Source of the DNA: Ophelia neglecta
Taxonomy: Eukaryota
NCBI GenBank assembly: GCA_965285935.1
Contig: OZ260661.1
Coordinates: 60,636,001 to 60,700,000 of the forward strand
DNA length: 64,000 bases
Direction: 5' to 3'
Shown: piece after piece, positions 13,976 through 53,000 of the stretch
How the letters are laid out: every line of letters starts with the position of its first letter
Numbering within the stretch: position 1 is the first letter of the stretch
The notes under the pieces: generated by a model
The model's input: only the letters and a program-made list of their open reading frames with translations
What the model was told of the DNA's origin: nothing
Database searches by the model: none
Translations under genes and position numbers: made by a program

Positions 13976-16900
13976 TGACAGTAGGGAGGCCACTATAGGA
14001 TACACACTCCATACGACAAATAAATAGGCACTCCTAGTTTCGGGCCATCGCTTTTTATGCACTGGGTCAAGTCATTTCAGCTGACATGAAGATTTAAGCT
14101 CAACAAAGTTTATTCAATTGTTCGTTCAAACCAAAACTATGCCTGCTAGTCATAATGCAAGAATGTATACAGCACTGGCAAGGGTGCGGACTGGGCGTCA
14201 CTCCGCATACAGTGATATACGTTCACACCCCATACATCTCAGAGGCGTGAATTACGCGGAGGGCAGTAGACACTGACGCTGGACAGGGCCGGCCAGCAGC
14301 TATGTGTAGAGTGGTGCATTGCCCCGGGGGATCAAAGAGGATTACAACTACCATTGTTCTAAGCTAGGATCGAGCATACTCTACCTGTATCTGGTATCTT
14401 AGGAATTCTTGACCTTTTGACCTAAATCTGCTAGTAAACAGTCAGACAAGAGAAGAGTCGTGAACGATTGTGTTTGGCTACAAAGGCCGGACACTACTAC
14501 AACGACAACCCACAGCCCACCCGTACGAGTTCCTGACAACTTCTTTACTTTTTTTTACCAATTTGGTATTAAAAATATCAGCTCAAAAACTCTGACTGAC
14601 CTTTCGAATGTTCTACACCGAGCGGTATATCTTCATTAACTGACTTATGGCGTAGGTGAACTCAAACAAATCTTTACAATTCAGCTCTCATTAATCGACA
14701 GTGTGATTGATAAATAGTGCTCATTTGCGAACGTAAAACACAGTTATTCTATTTATTCTCATAATACAAAGATTAAAGCCAACTCCAAACGTCTGCCTTC
14801 TTTACCAGGGGGTCGGGTTAAAGGTGCCAGGTGCTGTTATTTGCAAGCAGGTATCCCCCCTGGGTAGCACAGCATGGCGCTGAATTCGTCGTTTTAGATT
14901 TCTAATTGGAATATTCTAGAACGACACCTAAGATAGATTGTATAGACTCCTTACTTCAACAATGATTAATAGCTTATAGTGGATTTTTTAGTGCCACTAA
15001 TCTACTTAGAACTGTTTTTAATAGGCTCTAGCTAAAGGCTTAGGAGCGAAGCTGGTTTTTTCAATCATAATGTCAAACTCTGTTTCAAAATTACACGAAT
15101 TCAATGCATGTATGTAAATCAATCCGCTAAGAATCGTTGAAACAATAGCAGCCAAGCACAGAGGTAGCGAGGCTGAGACATGCCTAAGTAGTCCGGCGTC
15201 CACAACAAGTTCTTCCCAAGGCATCAGCACTGTTGCACCATCTTACGAGAGAGACGCGAGCAAAGCAGTAGATGGAATTATCGATCGATGCATTCTCGAC
15301 TACAGCAGACTGAAGAAAGTTAACTTCTGCTTTTGCGCGGGAAATTGGCGTCAAAGCGAGGGAACTTGGTCAATCGCAACTGCTGGACGTGGTTTCAATA
15401 CGGCTATGCATGCCAACTTCCGCTTCCGTTTAACTAATCCTGCTTTACATGTTTTGTACACACAGTAGACACGTTATACATCCAGATTATCTAATTTCTT
15501 GATCTCATGGTCGAGTTATGCAGACTTTCCAAACTTATCTGACAGTTATAATATCAGACTGGGATGAAATATCAAATTAATACTGGCCGCTTATACCTTA
15601 TAGTCGCTAGAGCTAATGCAAATCAATTTGGAAAGCAGGGCAGACATATTGATTTTCATTCCACTTACAAGATGATATGCTGTACGAGACAGATGCAAAA
15701 AAAAAAGAAAAAAAAAAGCTAGAAAGGAACACGCGATCTACCTGCAAAATAGCGTGTGCGACTAGCTAATTTAGTTTTTTTAAAGTTCAAATTGAAAAGA
15801 ACATTTCACAATTATCAAGTTTTTCCCGCTTCTACCATGGAATACAGACGAACTGATTGTTCTGTTGCAGGCTCTAACTCGCCCAACAATCATACAATTA
15901 TATAGATGCATGTTTGCAAGCCCAACAATTGCCGACTAGCTTTTTACGAGGTGTATTATATTCGTGTCTGCGACTTATTTCAAGATTAGTTTGGGCTGTT
16001 TCTTTGCAGAGTAAAACGACAAGGATGAATCATTTTGTCATTTAGATGCCTAGGCATGACGTGTGGTAGCTATGCTCGCCTACAGTCCAAGTCTGGCTGA
16101 TCGTGCCCGGCCGCATTGATCGGTAGAATTGATTATGACACCCTAGAAAACATGATTTATGTTCTGTCAATGGGTGATACGATCGGATTGTAATTTTCTA
16201 GATTAGCTGGGTCAGCGCGGGGAAGTAATGAATGCATCCGGGGACTTTTGCTCAAGTGTTCGCTCCGGTCACCGATTTAATTAACATGGCCGCCATCAAT
16301 ATGTGCATGCACAATAAGGGCAGTGACAGGGACATATTTTGCCCGGTGTCTTAACAACGAAATCCGGACAACATCGTCGGTTGTGCCAGTGACCAGCCGC
16401 CGCTAAAGCCTCCAAGGCGCTCCTTGCTCGGCTAATTCCGGTACGGCCAGCGACACCTCATCCATAATTGAAAAATGCCATTCACGACGATGCAGCCCGG
16501 TGGCCAATTGTTATATCTGTCATCCTTATACTAGCTCATCCAATAGCCGTGTCCCTTAGTTGGCATACATGACGGTGACAAACCCAGCCAGTTAGTTTAT
16601 GTTTGCACCATAATGGGTTGGCTGTGACAAATAGTAGTGGTAGTATCTGACCACTTCCGGAGATGGTCAGCCCTGAGTGGACAGTCTACCGGCTCATCAC
16701 AGTGGTTATTGATGCTAATGAATCTCTAAACTACAACGAGCCTAGATTGTAAGGACCTTTAATAAAAATGACTCTAGCGACACTCCTCAAACAGTGGCCT
16801 CATTGGTCTTAACTAGTCACGGAATGGAGGTCATAACAAACTAACAATTCCGTAAGTGCTCTCGTACCAAGCAAATAAATCTTGTGGTTTATTTAATAAA

Positions 16901-19000
16901 CAAATGTAAAACTATAGCACGGATCTGTAAATAGATATGCCCTATTTTCTAGTATAGCTTAGTATAGCTTAACTTCCGGTGTTTTCTGTGCGTCCGGGTA
17001 ATTTCATTTATGATCAGGGGCATTGACTATAATTCTAGGATAACCTTAGCTGACCATGTGTAATTTAGTAAGGTCACGTGAGGATTGACTGTGGAATCCA
17101 GGACACACAACCAACCGAACAAGTAGCAATCTGCCTTACAATTACCACATGGATCGATAAGTGAGTGAGCAGGTGGAAGAAGTAGATTATTATCAAAATG
17201 GTCATGCATTCGGTCGGTTATTGATTGGGCAAGAAATGGTGTTGGGTCCTAACCACCTGATCCTGGGGCGGGGAAGCTTCCAGTCATCCCGCAACAACAG
17301 CCCCATATCAAAGCTCGCCTCAACCCATCACAGGAAACCCGAACAGTGGGGCTGGCCAGATTATAAGAGCCACACCAATATATACTGCTTCCCGCATCAA
17401 TCACGGGAGGCCGCCCTGCTTTTGCGTGATCGGGCGGCTTCGATGATGTATCGTCAGGTAGTCAAAACGACACGTTGGAGGGAGCGTGAAATGACCATAA
17501 AATTGGGATGAGCGCTCACCAGGGAAGTGGGCTGCGGGCCTGTAAGTGTTACATGATAGGTGTAGGTGTGCTGTCAGTGGGGGGTTTACTGTACATCACT
17601 CACAAGACAAGACCGCATGTGAAGTGCCGCTCCAGCTCAAAACGGCAGCTTCAAATCACACTTTTATTACATAAACATTGGCCCGAAGATTGGAATACCG
17701 AAGACCAGGGAAAATTTTCGTGAACCGGAAGTTTTCACACAAAAAATTCCAGCAGAGCATGTCCTGTATGTGCTTTCTTTACGTAGCCATAAGTTTCAGA
17801 CGAATCTCTCCAAGAGATAGTAGTATAGGGCGACGAAATCTCACGTCGAAAAATATGGTAGATCGTGGTTCGGGAAATTTACCTGCTCGCCAAAATGACT
17901 TTGTTGAGGCGTTCAGTTCTAGCGTTTGTTTTGTGAAAACTACCAACAAATCGCCACTAGAAACAAAATAAAGCTTAATCGATGAAAGTATATAGCCATT
18001 TTTTGGTCAATGGTTCAAGTATAGGTCCGCCGACATTTCATGATTAGTTAAGGTTTAAGCAGGTCACATAAGTGACAGCTGTGCTGTGTATCTGTTGTAC
18101 ATTGTTACATCAAAGTTTCCAGTCGAGACTCACGAATACAAAATCAATAGTTTGGCGACAACCCATTCAAATTTGTATACATATTTATATAATTAATGCC
18201 ATTTTTTTTCTCATTCTGATTTTATTGAATAACAATTCTAGCCTCAAACAGATTGCATGTTCATTTAATGTGGACTTACCCTGCTAAACCAAGGATTTGT
18301 TTGTCCGGATAGCCTTGACGAATTGATACACGGCGCCAGACCATGAAACTTAATCAAACAAATCCTATTGGACATATTGGAATATACATGTTATTGCCAC
18401 AGCCTCAGCATGAAATTGAAATATAGGCCCATCTTTTAACGAGATTGTGTGATTCCCGTTAAACTTTTAAAAAACTCATCATGTCTAATATTTTGTAGGA
18501 TCGCAGTTCGGCGATAAAGCTGTTTGAACTGTTTATTCCTGCAAGTGGCATGACTGATGAGGAAGTTTTATTTGTGTTCCAGTGAACGTTATGTCTATCT
18601 TTTTTCTGACATTAATTTACATTATATTTATGTGGCCACTGCCACTTATTCTGACCTAGTTCTATTAAGTTGTAAATGTGGGTCACGTGACCGCTCGTTG
18701 GTCTGTATATTGTAGTGCATGGCCTGGGGATACGCTCCAAAGCCTTGACCCTTGGTCCATCAGCTCGCCAGTTATTGGCCCCTAAAGCTGGACGCTTTTC
18801 ATGAGGTCAGGAAGTGGAAGTTTAGTTAAACGATAGCACAGGAGGTGATTGTAAACACGTTTCAAATATTTACCTGGACTAGGGCCAGACATCCATACTA
18901 ATTTGATTGGTATACCGTGGTGAACTTGATCTTAGGTTTCACGGTGACTGCATGGGAAACACTATGTATGGCAAACATTACTGTTTATATATGAGGGATT

Positions 19001-19070
19001 TGACCTGCAGCCATAGAACCTTTGACCTCTCTCGTGGTAACATTTGACCTTGTTTTGACCCTTTTGACCC
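19001..19070 (-). promoter_or_regulatory. Array of five RGGTCA nuclear-receptor half-sites including a perfect DR5 and an overlapping DR3
   Basis: The plus strand has TGACCT at 19001, 19023 and 19045 and TGACCC at 19056 and 19065. Bases 19045-19061 read GGGTCA-AAACA-AGGTCA on the minus strand. Confidence 0.5.
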
Positions 19071-22000
19071 GTACTACCCTTCATGCTTTTCTAGGAGTAG
19101 TCTTGCACTCTACTCTAGAAATGTTCGCAGTGGCTTTGCAATGTCATTGTCTTTATTGGGCTCTCAGCAATCTAGTGGTATTGGCTCGCTTCATATTGGA
19201 AAAGAATCAGAAAATTAGATTGCGAGAAATGAACCTTGGGCCATCAGCATGACCCAGCGCTTACCATGAAGTCTGGTGACACGCTGGGCTTTATCAGAGC
19301 AATCCCAGATTGAATTGCCATTGCTTGAGAGGTGGAGAACCCAAATCTAAAAGTGAAAACGGACTTCTGTCTCGGCTTTTTAACAATGTGTCATCTTCCA
19401 TTGTGAAAGATTGGGTTGCGTCGAATAAAACGTATCTTGTATAGCATGAGCCTATCTCCCTGACCAGTCTAGTCTCTTTTTTGGCAAATGTGATTATTTC
19501 TGTGTTTTTTTTTTTTTTGGGGGGGGGGGAAGTGGCCCTGATCCTGACCCTATATTTGTTTTAGAAGTACTGAAAAATGTTTTATTAAAAGGGGAAACTT
19601 TATAACAATGGGACATGTATTACATTCTACTCATGTGAGATGTTAAGTCAGTAGGTCAAATGAAATAAACTTCCGGTTTCATGCCTGCATGCTTATTAAC
19701 CTGCAAAAAGGTTGAAATCGGTGCCGAAAGCACACCTTAAACAATATTCAGTTATTGACGAGTTGTAATATAACATTTAATATTATAGGAAGCGTTCAAA
19801 TTACATGGCAAAAGTCGTCTGGCATCGGTAGAAACAGTCGATAAACAAGAGGATCGTCTTCGCCCAAACTCATGGGGAGCCAGAGTAGTAATGCCAGATG
19901 CCAAGTTTCCTTAATGAAACTTCTCCCAGGGCGACTGTTCCAGTCAGGCTATGACACATTGGAAAATGAATTTTAAAGAATCTGTCCCTGTGCTTTGTGG
20001 GATTGACGGGACTTGATATGATCCGTCCGATCTCTGATATGGAAAAAGTGTTAGGAAATGAAAATGGGAGTGATGTGATTTAATCTCGTTTGGAAGCGCC
20101 AGGCACTGTCTGGGCCATAAGGCCGGCAGTCCAGTGCTGGTCAGTGGGTTGCCTGCCCTACAAGGCATCACATTCAGCAGCAAACATGTAATATAACCTT
20201 ATTTGGAATGGTTCATGCGACGCACATAATATTCTTTGAGTGTTCATAAAAGTGCCGTATTACTCATTCCGGGCAGGAGACGGTTTCTGAATCATAGAGC
20301 TCGGACTGTAATCCCAAAATCTTTCAGGCAAATCACAGAGTGATTATGTAACGGGATCATTCCAATTAAGATAATCGCATAACATCGAGCCGCCTAAATA
20401 CAAAGCAGACGCCACTTGCCCTTTTCCGGTCATTTGGGAGCGGTGTTTCAGTTACAGAGCCGTCTGCTGTGCCAAGTTAAATTGATAAAAAGAACGCTCT
20501 ATTGTTTAGAGAAAAAGAATGCTATTGGCTCATTAATGAGTGTCAGTCCTAGTGGGAACAGCTAGGAAAGTTTTGCTGCTGATACGGTTGATGTTCTTTT
20601 TTTTATCTCTGTGTATAAAAAGAGGACTGGCAGAACTGTAGGCTGGCAATATGACAGTTAAACATCAGGCGCAACTCTCCAGGTAGACGCATTGGACAAT
20701 CTCACCGAGAGCGTTTAATTTCAACATTGATATCCATCCCCGATCTAGTTATTTTTTCCATTTCATTTTTTCTCACTGCATAGAGACCGAAATTAATCAT
20801 AATCTGCAGCGATGTCGGCGATAATTTATCACTCTAGGTCATATTAAGAAAGGTGTGCTGACGTTTATTAAGTATTTAGTCATGCATCCTGGAGACAGCA
20901 AAGTAAGTCGCCGTTGTTGAGCAGACGATCATATTAAATTCATATCATTGGAGTCTGCAGCAAAGTCTTCAATTATCATACGGTATTGCTGCATGGTGAC
21001 ATGCGCTTTATTCTACTCGATTTCACGCCTGCCAATGGGTTTGTGTTAACAACTGCGGAAAATCAATTAATGTTCTTGTAGGTGTGTTTTCATTAGTCTG
21101 AAAAAGAGCTGTTAACTTGCACAACATTGTGTGAGGAGAGAATGGGCGATGTTACGTAATCAAAACACCCGGATGAACGGTTCCGCCAGACAGACAGATC
21201 AAGCAAACACAAGAAGTAGGCTTTTCGAGGGAGCGTTAAAATCCGTTCAGGTCTGAAACAATGTCGATGGAATATCGATGTTGCCATGACAACGTGTGAT
21301 TCCCCATTCGATCCCACTGTGGCTAACCGACACCCACCGATGAACCGATAAGCATCAGCGGAAGTATCTGGGCGGCCGACGGCGTGTATGTGTGGGGAGC
21401 CTGCAGGGCCCAGCCGCACGGAACGCTAGCTTCCAGGGAAGGTCAGGCGGACCGCCCCCCTGCAGATAGGGTCGCAGAAGAACCATGTCAGGGAAACGCT
21501 AATAATAAAAATAAAGATACAACTTTTGATTAATCAGCGAAAGTGTAATTCAGACCAGAGATGGGACATATGGATTTTGGCATTGCGTGATCGGGTTCGG
21601 CCTGGCCGAAAAAAAGCCAAAGTTGGAACCTGGTAGAGCCCGGAGAAAGCACGGTATCGTCTGCCATCGTCTGACACGACATGCTAACTTTGAGATATCA
21701 ATGGCATAGAAGCAAGGCCACTATGAAAAGATCACTGGTAAGATCGTTAATTTGGCATTTTGGTTTTCTTTTCATTGGCTGAACAATGGACTCAATTGGT
21801 GGCTATTATCAAGGAACCATGGATGCCGAAGGTAATGGCAGAGCTCAGAATAAGGTCTCTTATACCACCTCTGGCGGCCAAAGGGGTCGGGAGTGGGGAG
21901 GCACTGAATTGGTGTGCATGGGCCACAGCTGGTCGGGTCTGCCAACTCTGTTATCAGGAGCAAGGGCCTTGACATCAGAGGCCGGTGGGTGACAGAGGCG

Positions 22001-24659: not shown

Positions 24660-26426
24660 CTAGAATCTACCAGATAGATTTATTCCAGTGAAAAATATAA
24701 CAAAATACACAAATATTTCTATGAATCTAGGACATTTGTCATGAAAAATGAAACCTGCTGCATGAGTGGTATATAATTACAAGTAAGCTGCTTTAACAAC
24801 TGTATGACATTAAACAAATGTTACAAATGGAGTTATTGGGCATAAACTTTTTGGGAAGGCTCTGAATGCATAAATTGTTTATATCATATCAACTTGTGCA
24901 TCGGTGCATCTATAGCATTTAGCACCGTCAATTCGTATTATATATACACCATGACACACCGTGCTGGCAAGTAGGGATAAATAGATTATAGAAATGTGCA
25001 TACTTTCTGCTAAAGGCATGTAACTGGTTTTCATTATGTATAAGTGATATAGAAAATGGAACATGCATATTCGAGGGATTTATACACACTCGTAGAGCTC
25101 GAAACAGCTGAGGCTGTTAGACTACACATACAACAGCGTAGTATGATTGACCTAGAGCCTAACCTGACTACAGACAAAATGATAGGCCCTACTACCAACC
25201 TACCGCCGAAGCCGCCCTGGGCAACGGCCAACGGTCACAGGCTTGTAGCTAATTATGCGGATCGACAAAGGGCAGGAACTCGTAGGCATATAAAACTGCC
25301 TACGAATACAATGAATTTAGACGAAATTGAACCAGATTATAAACAACTAAAACGACACTGATTTTGTAGGCCTACATATCTATTTTTCGTCTGCTGTTAA
25401 TGACCTTTGACCCAAAGTGTTAATAGTGAGAAGCTCTCTATTGGGAAATGTTAATTCAAATAAAAAATGACTTTACACTAGTTTTGACGGTTCAGCCAAA
25501 TAAAATGGACGCTACAATGATAGCTTAAGAACAGTGATGAACCCAAAAGCTCCTGTATGATAAGCATAATGAAGAACACAGCAGAGGATAGCTTTACGAA
25601 TATTAAGACAGATATTTTGGTCTATACCATATCATATACACATTAAAAAAATTGTATGATACATAAAAGTGTCATAAAATCTGCTGACCCGCGAACCCGT
25701 ATCGTTTTCAATACTACAATATGTAATATTTTCTTCAAAAACATTACGATTTACCATATTCCTATGCATATACACTTACAAATGCATAAATGCAAGAACA
25801 AAATCGCCCAATATGACTCCCAAACAGTTGGACAATGAGGGAACAATACTAAAGCCAATAGTTAGAAATAAACGTATATTTATATACATCAAAAGTTGGA
25901 AGTTGTGCTTGATCCTTTGGGATATTCCCTAGTGGGGTTACAGCAATTCCGCTCACAAAATTTAAACGAGAAATCTGGATAAACACGAAATAACTACAAC
26001 GTCCAGTTATACATTTACATTATGATTTTTTAAACGAGAGACCAACTTAAAGGCTGCAGGTCTTGGTAACACCAGGTATACCAATTCTGCCTATAGCAAC
26101 CCAATGGGGGTATCAGGCCGACACAAAAATCACTCATATATAGGGTCGGGACAACTTCAGCATGGACCATTAATATACCTAAACAGTTCCTAAAGTGCCT
26201 TGGATGCCATTCCTCGGATAGCATCGAATATCTGTATCCAACAACTTATATAAATAAACTGGCGATTTACAGGCTAAGCGAAGTATACAGCATTGTTTAC
26301 AAAGATTTTTGACAATTCAGGTGAGTTGGTGGAGGTCGGTGAAATGTCGTTTGCATACAGTTTTTCATGGGAAGAGTTAATGATACATATGGTGAAATTC
26401 ACTGGTGAGGTTTTTTGGGGCCTGGA
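24660..26426 (-). other. Hox4: Probable Hox4 3' UTR (~1.75 kb) ending near AATAAA at 24684-24679
   Basis: The minus strand is U-rich with many TGTA words. Perfect Pumilio-type TGTATATA elements occur at 25881-25888 and 24941-24948. The first AATAAA I could find downstream of the stop is at 24684-24679. The end point is inferred, not shown. Confidence 0.5.
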
Positions 26427-26779
26427 CTAAGGCATGTCCGAGTTTATTGCCGAGTCAGTGGATGTATCAGAAGTGTTAAGAGCCTGAGAACAGATGTTGG
26501 TTTCATTGTGACACGATGTAGGACTGGAAACGCCAGAGCCGTCTGATAGCCTCGTTTTCGTGTTTGGTAGCTTGTGCTCTTTCTTCCATTTCATACGGCG
26601 ATTTTGAAACCAAATCTTTATCTGTCGTTCTGTCAAACACAAAGAATGTGCTATTTCAATTCTTCTCCGCCGCGTTAGATATCTATTGAAATGGAATTCC
26701 TTCTCCAGTTCCAGAACTTGGTGTCTTGTATAAGCCGTCCGAGTTCGCTTGTTGTCCCCGTTGAATACGCCATTGGATG
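26427..26779 (-). CDS. Hox4: Hox4/Deformed orthologue, coding exon 2 (homeodomain ~26753-26574, stop TAG 26429-26427)
   Basis: The acceptor TTTACTTTGCAG|CA at 26780 joins exon 1 in frame (G+CA=Ala). The homeodomain [60 protein letters not shown] is followed by the PG4-diagnostic LPNTK. The spliced CDS is 759 nt, or 252 aa plus stop. Confidence 0.98.
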
Positions 26780-27549: not shown

Positions 27550-27955
27550 CTGAGCCCATATGTGCTTTTTTCATCCACGGGTATATCATAGGTGTGCTAG
27601 TGTTTGCTGCCGTGCAAGGGACCATCCGTCCGTTGGTGGGAGTAGGCGATGGGACACTTTGCGGACTTTGTGACACAGGGGTGTATCCTTGAGCAGGGAC
27701 CGGGTTGGGTGGCTCCGAGACCCGGTTCATGGTCGGGGGTCCGGTCGCACACGCTCCATAGTTTGTGTTTGGAGAGTAACTCTCCTGCGAAGGATATCCT
27801 CTTTGCTCATGTGGAAAACCATAGCTGTGTCCAGAACTTCGGTAGAAATCCTCGTGTCCACTGGAAATATAGTTATTTTGTGAATATTCCTCATTTGGAG
27901 GGAACTTAGGCTCCGCAAACGGAGATGAGTTCATCAAAAACGAACTCATGATCAT
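27550..27955 (-). CDS. Hox4: Hox4/Deformed orthologue, coding exon 1 (135 codons + 1 nt)
   Basis: The N-terminus MIMSSFLMNS..EPKFPPNEEYSQNNY is the paralogue-group-4 N-terminal motif. The hexapeptide IYPWMKK lies near the exon end. The exon ends at the strong donor CAG|GTAAGT (intron starts at 27549, phase 1). A second in-frame ATG is at 27949. Confidence 0.97.
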
Positions 27956-49152: not shown

Positions 49153-49999
49153 CAGGCCTATCAATGACCCCAAAGCATAATCTAACTCACGCATGGTTTC
49201 AACACTCATGATTAAAAGATCTAGTTACAAGCCAGTCACTAAAATGCCAAATTCTTATTCAAATATACGCATGGATCTAATAAACATTAAAGATTTATTG
49301 TATACAATTTGTATATTAAATATCAGTTAGCAATATCATCAATTTCGTTGTCAAGCTTAATACATTTGCTTAATACTTACGTTGCATGCTATAAACAGTA
49401 CCCAAAATAAATGCAATTCAAAGCACCCATTTATTTTGAAGAAAAAAAACAGACCTTTCATGCAAATGTCAAAAATTAAACTGTACAGTTCTGTATTTGC
49501 ATTCTTGAATAAATAAAGTAAATCTACTCTGTACTCACTTCTCTAAAATCACTTTATAAATCAGAACTGTGCTCTTGACAAGTTAACGAATAAACAGACT
49601 ATGTACGGGAATTCAATATAGGCAACCAGCCTTTATTATACCACTTTGATATATACATCTTCAACTCTCCTTAGACCCATTTTAGTCCAATGGTCCTCAT
49701 GCACTGCTACATCACATTTGCTTTAAAGAAATATACCTGTTAACTTAATATTCTGTTTACTTTTCCGTCAAACTTTTTCCCAAATTAACTAGATAGATTA
49801 TACCAAACTATAAAATAAAATTGACAGTATAAATATATGTAAGAAACTCAAAAGCAATTGAACATCTGCTATCCATAGACTGGAAAGAATCAGAAACTTA
49901 CCATAGGATAAAATAAGTAGCCACGTATTGAACATAAAATCCCGGTTATTTATTGGTAGACTTTTTTCTCGAAACTTGCTGCAAAGCTAGCCACTACGT

Positions 50000-50057
50000 C
50001 ACACTCCGCAGATACGAATTTGTCGTTGTGAGCACACAAATTCGGATCTACAGGGTA
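50000..50057 (-). ncRNA. mir-10: miR-10 precursor hairpin (5p mature 50057-50035; 3p arm ~50022-50000)
   Basis: The minus strand reads TACCCTGTAGATCCGAATTTGTG (canonical miR-10-5p), a loop, then CAAATTCGTATCTGCGGAGTGTG, which pairs with the 5p arm. The lower stem CCATTAC/GTAGTGG extends the hairpin. It sits on the same strand as, and 5' of, Hox4, its conserved position. Confidence 0.97.
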
Positions 50058-53000
50058 AAGGTAATGGTGCATAAGTACATCCGGTAAAGATCCTGCTTGT
50101 TGAAGTCAAGTACATGTCGCTGTACGATCCCCAACGAAAAAGTCAACAGCTTATCATATATAATTAAAGCCCACTAGTATAAACGACAGTGGAAGAGGAT
50201 AAAAAACATTTGGCGTATGATCTCGAGAGCAGGACGAGTAATAAACTCGTATATATGGTGAAATAGAAAAAGTTACATTATGATGGCAAATACAATATCA
50301 AGAATGTTAAAGGGTTAATCTAAAACAAAATTGTGTTAACCTGCTTATACATGGTAGTTAGGCATCAATTAATAATGGTTTTACGTCACATAAATGGGTT
50401 GAGTTGTTGCATACACATGTTAGGATACCTAATGTTCGTATTTATGGCGCCTAAGATAAGGTTATTTTTAGCTTCAGACATAAATTCTTCCTATATCACA
50501 GTGCTTTATCTATCATGGTAGCGCGAGTTGGCAAGCTGTACATTTTAAACTTGCTGGAAGACCCGGGCACGCATAATCTTGCGCCAAATATCAACTTTAA
50601 AAGAGATATAAATCATATCAAGCAGAAGTCGGACAGTGAAAAAATATCATGATATCTTGGTAAGGTAGACAGCACTATTTTTATTGCTCCGAGTAACCAT
50701 TATACCATTCCTTACCATATCCATAACATAATGAGGCAGTCTCGCACGGTGACTACTAAATGTGGTACCATGATGAGTCAGCACCGAAAGAAAACTACTA
50801 AAAAACGGTTTAATGTGGCTTCCATCAAATTCAATGTACATTAAATGCGTCTAATTAAAGTAGGCACACAGAAGTCGAAAGCCATGCAACATGTATACTG
50901 TATGTTTTTTAGCGCGTTACCATACCAGATCAAGCACTGTATAATATATATACATATAGTGGAAAACTTTATTCGGGTTTCATTGTGTTAAAACATAAGA
51001 AGGCATTTTAGTGTGGCCTGCCACGGTCCCAGTATAGTTTTGTGTGGCTGAAACTTTTAAACTATGTTAGCAAAGCGTACACAAAACCATTCCATTAATA
51101 ACTCGACCATTTTCTCCCTGTCGGGCAGGACTTCAATGCTTAACATCCAGAGATGTTAAGAAGAGACAGTAAGGAATGAGATGTTGTTGTTTCATGACAA
51201 GGTGATAAACATTGCAGCCTAACTCCTTATGAACAGTTACACCAATTTTACTTCTCCGCAGAGCAAAATATGTTTGATAAATTTCTGTCCCGTATCAGCT
51301 AAAAACCAAGACTGATAGCCTACATCTAATATAAATAGTGTGGTCTAATACTGAACTGCCGGGTATAGGCCTATGCCACTACCCTACAGTGTTTAACATA
51401 CTCAAGTACCTGTACTGGCTAGATAATGCTTGACATATCAATTGTGTTATCCTACATAACAATTAAAGATTAAAGTGACAAAAATGCTGTTGCTCTATCG
51501 TAACAAAAACCGCTATCATCACCAGTACATATATTTAATCCTCTTCAAGTGATACATTGGAAAATAAATTTGCAACCAAATTTATTCGCCTGAGAAGAAT
51601 TCCAATCTTTTTCAGGTACTCCGCTTAAAACATGCCAGTACAACATGCTTTTAAACAACAGGGGTCAAAGTGCGCTGTCCTTGAGATTACTAGGTGAAAA
51701 TTAACTCTTCACAGATATAGGCCTATATTGTGTATACGAAAACAGTGTGCCTTCTCAAGCTTTATCAGCAACAGTAGAACACTTCTTAAGAAGTCATTGG
51801 AAAGTCGCACACTGATATATGCTGGCATTGATATTGTAATCTTTCTGTCGGTCATGTTTTAAATAGTTATCCAAGAACAATTGTATTAATATAACCTCTA
51901 AATGTAACAATTCAGGGTCTGACATTACGTTTAAAAAGTAACTGCCTAAACCTAATATCTGAGGCTTGCAACAGTGTGACCCATGGAAATGAAGCTAAAA
52001 TTCACTCGCCCGACTTCTATTTTTACTCTCCCCGGTCAGTCGGCCAGTCACATATATCAAGCCCTGAAAATGATACTCGGCAGAGAAGTTCAATTGATGC
52101 TAGGAATCACGTCATATGCATGAAAGTACATCACTGCCGAACCCAGGCTACCGAATACCAAGAGTGCTAAGAAATATTTAAGACGATAGACTCAGAAAAA
52201 GTTAATAAAACTTGTCTTGCAATATTATAAAACATGCAAGCTCCAATTTTTGCCTTAGTCTACAGTCAATTTAATCTTGAGTTTTGACTGCCTGCGCATG
52301 TAATAATATTTGCCAGATTATTACAAGTGCTATTTGTTGTTTTTTCTGAACTGAAATGCGACGAAAGTTAAGTTATTAAGGCTTGTTTGAAGAACTTCAA
52401 AGGGTGGTATCATAAACACCTGATATGCTAGACTGGCCTTGAGCCTACGCTACAGCAAGGCCACTGCGCCCATGGGTAGGAACTCGTATGAAGGGTCTTT
52501 GTTTCTGTTCTATACCTGTTCGAAACGGTTGTCAACTCTAGATGATTAATTACCATTTCATAGAGAATTCTCTTGTGTGTACAGATATGTATGTTAGATT
52601 TCTCTGCTGATCGCGCTTTTGAAAACAGACGTTGAAGCAAAGACTGCAGATTGTACAAAAGTGTATCAGACCACATCTTACATTCCATTCTAAACTGAAG
52701 AAATTAAAAACTCACTTCCTATTTGTTTAAGACTGACTGCATACACAATGGCTCAGCGTATTTCAAAAACTGCTGAAACTTTAACATAAATTAGTATATC
52801 ACACAAAAGTAAATGCTGACAGGAATAAATATAACTTGGCGCAGAATAACCATTATATTTGAATATGCCTGAGCAAATATATAGTGATGAGATGTGCACA
52901 GTTTGCTGGGCTAAAAAGGGGAAATATGCAACTTGCACCCATGAAATATTCTTGGGTCTATGGTTAGTTTTCAACACAGCGGGGAGGCAGAAATAGCACG

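Follow-up and report, generated by a model that had tools for sequence, protein, structure and literature searches.

The closest described counterparts of the locus considered here are the DR5 elements that lie 3′ of vertebrate group-4 Hox genes, those of Hoxb4 and Hoxd4 appearing in Table 1 of PMC4009813 as elements conserved between fish and mammals. In amphioxus, DR5s of Hox1 and Hox3 have been demonstrated by transgenesis (PMC3227721), most predicted Hox retinoic acid (RA) response elements (RAREs) are reported as not common to two congeners (PMC3534614), and position 4 of the spacer is a purine in the validated DR5 consensus (PMC5247814). As far as the available part of that study extends, no conserved DR5 was found for CYP26 in Capitella or Lottia (PMC5247814). 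The annelid RAR has been characterized as a sensor of low affinity that, paired with RXR, binds DR1, DR2 and DR5 in vitro. RA treatment of Platynereis reduced hox1 expression at both the cirri and the stomodeum; in the portion of the paper available, the anterior neuroectodermal boundaries of hox1 and hox4 were unchanged by RA, and that of hox1 was also unmoved by rar knockdown (PMC5821490). In the oyster, an RAR antagonist lowered hox1, lox5, lox4 and post2, and the accessible text records no hox induction by atRA (10.1101/2025.03.09.642214). A snail preprint cites mollusc RARs as having lost RA binding and retained RARE binding (10.64898/2025.12.01.691671). A literature search covering titles and the beginnings of abstracts turned up no published RARE in a spiralian Hox cluster, although this does not prove that none exists.

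We analyzed a 64-kb stretch of DNA from Ophelia (the window; C1:60636001-60700000 within a 762-Mb genome) that carries an array of RGGTCA half-sites near Hox4. Like the vertebrate Hox4 elements, the array includes an RGKTCA DR5 on the 3′ flank of a Hox4 gene, in the interval that separates it from Hox3; unlike them, this candidate DR5 is one pairing within a five-site array, and the RAR pocket of the animal is of the non-chordate type. It likewise resembles the amphioxus DR5 RAREs (Hox1 3′, Hox3 5′ and the CYP26 cluster) as an invertebrate DR5 near developmental genes, and the amphioxus CYP26 cluster also has a DR5 beside DR3 elements (PMC3227721, PMC5247814). The amphioxus elements, however, passed a cross-species conservation filter plus EMSA or transgenesis, and the spacer of the Ophelia DR5 departs from their consensus at position 4.

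Homotypic transcription-factor binding-site clusters form a general class, and the array resembles its members in repeating one word on one strand at nearly helical intervals, within unique non-coding sequence beside a developmental gene.

The half-site array and its Hox cluster setting

Ten Hox homeodomains lie collinearly on the minus strand at 60.53-61.08 Mb, forming an intact cluster of about 550 kb. The order, with names that we presume from parapeptide signatures, is Hox1, Hox2, Hox3, Hox4, Hox5, Lox5, Antp, Lox4, Lox2, Post2; Post1 was not seen in the 620 kb read (60470001-61090000). The spiralian identity proposed in the original prediction was upheld by the Lox5, Lox4, Lox2 and Post2 homeodomains that share the cluster with Hox4. 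We consider the animal probably an annelid, because, among named proteins, Hox4 exon 1 matches best one from the annelid Paralvinella (48% identity, 111 bits; next named match, 80 bits). On the minus strand, Hox4/Dfd comprises coding exon 1 with the YPWM motif (27550..27955), its putative splice point placed from the sequence and from the Hox4 protein of a close relative (P0001, 82% over exon 1), and coding exon 2 with the homeodomain and the LPNTK peptide, running from a predicted exon start to the stop (26427..26779). The Hox3 exon 1 hexapeptide is at 60,575,842, about 79 kb from the array. The Hox region is repeat-poor, with 2.8% TRF-masked versus 13.9% in a background sample, and when the window was compared with 1.12 Mb of other DNA from the same genome the homeobox was the only match.

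The window also contains a miR-10-like minus-strand hairpin at 49985-50070, located through the miR-10 seed. It occupies the canonical position between Hox4 and Hox5, 22 kb upstream of Hox4, and has a fold z of -5.3; Rfam at its gathering threshold did not report it and gave 0 matches in the whole window.

The array itself is a homotypic cluster of five RGGTCAAA words, each a nuclear-receptor half-site plus AAA, at 18999..19070 on the minus strand, which is the sense strand of Hox4. Its RGGTCA starts are at 19070, 19061, 19050, 19028 and 19006, giving spacings of 9, 11, 22 and 22 bp in this direction. On re-scanning, the five half-sites, the 22/22/11/9 spacing, the DR5 and the DR3 of the original prediction were recovered at exact coordinates, and its estimate of about 7.4 kb from the Hox4 stop (26427-26429) came to 7.36 kb, with the array 3′ of the gene. 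By motif match, the DR5 is perfect (GGGTCA-AAACA-AGGTCA, 19045..19061, minus), as is the DR3 (19056..19070, minus), which coincides with an exact 9-bp tandem duplication at 19053-19070 that constitutes the last two half-sites. These are the sole RGKTCA-type DR5 and DR3 within the window. Overlapping the 3′ half of the DR5 is CAAGGTCA (19045..19052, minus), a 5′-extended half-site of putative NR5A/ERR type, and a DR2 with one mismatch begins at the fourth half-site (19015..19028, minus). A wider, single-copy stretch at 18600..19300 (strandless), the candidate extent of a module, contains 10 RGGTCA (8 minus, 2 plus), 2 RGTTCA and one E-box. The RGGTCAAA word shared by all five sites, the 9-bp duplication and the RGGTCA-dense 700-bp surroundings are additional to the features noted before.

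We considered and rejected two other sources for the array. A transposon or dispersed repeat is contradicted by its single-copy state, since it matched only itself in two own-genome DNA searches (very common words skipped) and blastn of the region against 1.12 Mb of fetched own-genome DNA gave no match; a coding origin is contradicted by spacings that are not all multiples of three and by open frames of at most 82 codons over the array.

Array rarity and the repeat landscape

Assuming independence, five RGGTCA in about 70 bp would be expected 2e-5 times per window. An empirical null was drawn from 1.02 Mb (620 kb Hox plus 400 kb background) by counting every non-low-complexity 7-mer with at least 5 copies per 75 bp. 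This yielded 8 clusters, seven of them within TRF arrays, the Hox4-adjacent array being the sole one outside; with at least four copies, 3 of 35 clusters fell outside TRF arrays, and two of these three are TGACC words. RGGTCA occurs 10 times in the 700 bp around the array, compared with a mean of 0.83 per 700 bp, and 0.58% of 869 tiles reach that count. Two spots within the 620 kb are denser, both apparently tandem arrays, and with these excluded the next-best 600-bp window contains 6. Collectively, the array is more than chance, a statistical outlier in unique, repeat-poor DNA, and it has the features of a homotypic cluster: several copies beyond chance, non-tandem, in single-copy sequence. 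The half-sites are phased at 10.5 bp (R=0.87; post hoc simulation, p about 0.01), yet phase cannot separate selection from a minisatellite origin because 22 bp, the maximum searched, is also the commonest spacing among the listed RGGTCAAA-triplet places of the genome. Polymorphism was uninformative on constraint, with 22 variant places in 1,410 bp and 0 in the cores (P=0.53), and Fox/GATA co-motifs, as in endoderm-type clustering, were not significantly enriched near the array.

We then placed the array against the repeats of its own genome. A search for three RGGTCAAA spaced at most 22 bp apart gave 147 matches against 33 for the control, and the first 100 of these, the matches listed, collapse to 45 places once overlapping rows are removed. 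Among these listed places, 42 are tandem arrays and 3 are non-tandem; the Hox4-adjacent array is the only non-tandem one with five words, and another (L211) appears by eye to be a decayed 11-mer. The commonest triplet spacings among the same 45 are 22, 17, 21 and 11 bp, with 22 bp, the maximum searched, in 12. At three spacings, RGGTCA pairs outnumber the reversed word 4.5-5.5x, an excess to which numerous unrelated minisatellites are the main contributors; their periods are often 10-11 or 20-22 bp. The array has the same word and the preferred 11 and 21-22 bp spacings as these minisatellites; however, they repeat a whole unit, whereas the array shares an 8-bp core only. Its three 22-bp units have identical cores, but their spacers match one another at 4, 4 and 3 of 14 positions, so that head-to-tail similarity across the unit is absent, and TRF reported only the 2x9-bp duplication (score 36), nothing at score 40 and no 11- or 22-bp array at the cluster. 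The four-site 22/11/9 layout recurs in 37 metagenome stretches, by eye all short TGACCY tandem repeats; none aligns to the array flanks, and no orthologue of the array is among them. A literature search on TGACCT-rich repeats in invertebrate genomes found nothing relevant among the papers listed.

DR5 frequency and the encoded receptors

Genome-wide, exact RGGTCA-N5-RGGTCA occurs 3,143 times against 701 for the reversed control (4.5x), and RGGTCA-N6-RGGTCA (DR6, a non-RARE spacing) 2,740 times against 499 (5.5x); the corresponding counts are 4,326 and 872 for the N1 arrangement (DR1), and 4,820 and 2,175 for RGKTCA-N5-RGKTCA. Strict DR5s thus occur at one per 242 kb, and the 620-kb Hox region has one, that of the array, versus 2.6 expected from this rate, so neither the frequency nor the placement of DR5s exceeds background. 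Shuffled windows are expected to hold 0.02 strict DR5s (present in 2/100 shuffles), and 40 background stretches (400 kb) held 1, the per-place rate being below the genome count because many matches lie within tandem arrays. By arithmetic from these samples, the chance of a DR5 inside 10 kb of a chosen gene end is a few percent. The triple combining a DR3 and a DR5 occurs 10 times genome-wide and 0 times in the control. Collectively, DR5 spacing is not in itself special in the Hox4-adjacent array.

RGKTCA-type DR5s in the 620-kb Hox region number 10 at 3 places, 8 of them inside one repeat, built on a 35-bp period, that lies immediately 5′ of the Lox4 homeobox (60878384-60879749). A perfect DR1 (25401-25413) and a perfect DR2 (14410-14423), both on the minus strand, lie beyond the Hox4 stop on its 3′ side, at distances of about 1 kb and 12 kb, so that 3 of the 12 strict DR1/2/5 matches of the 620 kb fall inside 11 kb, a modest and post hoc observation. 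Another perfect DR2 precedes the homeobox exon of Hox1 by a few hundred bases, within the intron (60527888-60527901, minus). CYP26 was sought as a DR5 control, and a P450 profile search of the genome gave 96 matches without subfamily names.

With respect to receptors, a zf-C4 profile gave 72 genome matches, and in 40 stretches read by eye we recognized DNA-binding domains that, from their signatures, we take to be those of RXR, COUP-TF, HNF4, NR2C, ERR, NR5A, NR4A, TR and others. An RAR gene at C9:51.14 Mb was identified by search, its DNA-binding exon matching RARs first (E 9e-24). The spiralian retention of RAR/RXR that had been anticipated is thereby confirmed by search for RAR, and by eye from the DNA-binding domain for RXR. 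Two RAR ligand-binding exons match best to chain 6eu9, presumably the Platynereis receptor, with human RARalpha next. Helix 3 has Val where human RARalpha has Phe, the non-chordate state also seen in 6eu9. The Platynereis residue V356 has been equated with human F228 (PMC5821490). In the oyster RAR, Val-to-Phe restored vertebrate-like behaviour (10.1101/2025.03.09.642214), and the same change lowered activation in Platynereis. The RAR gene is about 37 kb from a putative thyroid hormone receptor gene recognized by eye (C9:51.14-51.19 Mb), a proximity reminiscent of the vertebrate THRA-RARA neighbourhood.

Set against what defines a RARE, the locus has two RGKTCA 5 bp apart in direct repeat in a genome that encodes RAR and RXR; it lacks a chordate-type RAR pocket, in that Val aligns with Phe 228 of human RARalpha. 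The spacer, AAACA, has C at position 4 and departs from the amphioxus consensus NNN(A/G)(A/C/G), which is weak evidence because a hemichordate CYP26 element likewise has C there. RAR/RXR could well bind this DR5 in vitro, although such binding would not itself imply that an RA gradient is read.

Readings of the array

We tentatively favour, at a little short of an even chance, the reading of the array as a candidate homotypic nuclear-receptor half-site module that reads no RA gradient. Receptors recognizing RGGTCA would load several sites on the same helix face as monomers or loosely spaced dimers, the candidate binders being orphan or unliganded (COUP-TF, RXR dimers, NR2C, ERR/NR5A, apo RAR/RXR), and the bound module may tune transcription of Hox4 (or Hox3) in some tissue, with the five cores presumably maintained by selection. 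Hox4 is the predicted target because it is the nearest gene, the Hox3 coding sequence being far more distant. The 9-bp duplication probably created the DR3, and an 11-bp step in that local expansion the DR5; both would then be by-products and not homologues of the vertebrate Hox4 RAREs. This reading is favoured by the array being the only non-TRF cluster of at least five 7-mer copies in the 1.02 Mb sampled and the only five-word non-tandem place among those listed, by its single-copy state, unrelated spacers, intact cores, phasing and RGGTCA-dense surroundings, and by the RGGTCA-type receptors recognized in the genome. Monomer receptors classically read 5′ half-site extensions, unlike the extension common to the array words, which is 3′ (AAA), so these words may be bound by a protein other than a nuclear receptor. 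The abundance of RGGTCA minisatellites, with 22 bp as their commonest listed spacing up to the 22 bp searched, and the tandem-like metagenome stretches of identical layout also argue against a module. They point to a neutral history, in which an old 11- or 22-bp RGGTCAAA minisatellite decayed, a recent 9-bp slippage was added and no regulatory role exists. We regard this history as a serious contender, if on the whole unlikely: the predominance of tandem arrays among the listed triplet places, the preferred spacings, the decayed appearance of L211, the perfect duplication and the enrichment of RGGTCA pairs at all three spacings are what it predicts, but three AGGTCAAA cores are intact beside spacers of random similarity when neutral decay should strike both, TRF finds no 11- or 22-bp array, and the surrounding region is repeat-poor. 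The slippage caveat attached to the original prediction remains serious and fits the repeat landscape of this genome, and it sits less well with intact cores between unrelated spacers.

The vertebrate parallel suggests a true RARE, at which RAR/RXR on the DR5 would let RA raise Hox4 as at Hoxb4 and Hoxd4. In its favour are a perfect DR5 3′ of Hox4, the sole strict one in the 620-kb cluster, where both vertebrate genes have theirs (PMC4009813), the same-strand perfect DR1 and DR2, an encoded RAR whose annelid counterpart binds such repeats with RXR (PMC5821490), and the hox changes seen in Platynereis under RA and in the oyster under antagonist. We nevertheless judge it improbable given the background frequency of DR5s, the helix-3 valine, the unmoved Platynereis boundaries (PMC5821490), the reported lack of atRA induction in the oyster (10.1101/2025.03.09.642214), the limited sharing of predicted amphioxus elements between congeners (PMC3534614) and, weakly, the spacer. 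In vivo binding of RAR/RXR at the DR5, giving Hox4 either a retinoid input or ligand-independent RAR repression in an annelid, seems similarly doubtful; if it were true, RAR would have been wired directly to the 3′ flank of Hox4 either before chordates arose or on two occasions, and that wiring would include the DR1 and DR2 beyond Hox4 as well as the intronic DR2 of Hox1. The array could alternatively be a boundary or tethering element that separates the Hox1-3 group from the central genes through a non-receptor protein, for example a zinc-finger protein, reading TTTGACCY. The 3′ AAA common to all five words fits a longer fixed motif, and a preprint on Capitella (10.64898/2026.05.18.725834) describes a boundary motif specific to the lineage and a Hox TAD divided into sub-domains, one of which groups Hox1-3. 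This explanation is suggested by analogy with those sub-domains only, and we hold it to be a long shot, as non-tandem clusters of the word make up 3 of the 45 listed places, whereas a boundary motif is used at hundreds of sites.

Of the nuclear-receptor input between Hox4 and Hox3 that was originally proposed, the general idea remains plausible for an outlier cluster in unique DNA, while its RARE component is unsupported. As a motif cluster the array is real and unusual, and it is a candidate defined by motifs in a non-model animal; we do not class it as a RARE, and its vertebrate-style DR5 gives little reason to infer vitamin A control of Hox4. If functional, the favoured half-site module would constitute a compact candidate nuclear-receptor input within the Hox cluster of a spiralian, a setting in which hardly any enhancers of individual genes have been described; the main text of a 2026 preprint on annelid Hox regulation mentions no retinoic acid, RAR or nuclear receptors (10.64898/2026.05.18.725834). 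A half-site cluster already present 3′ of Hox4 would also offer a substrate for later capture by RA control.
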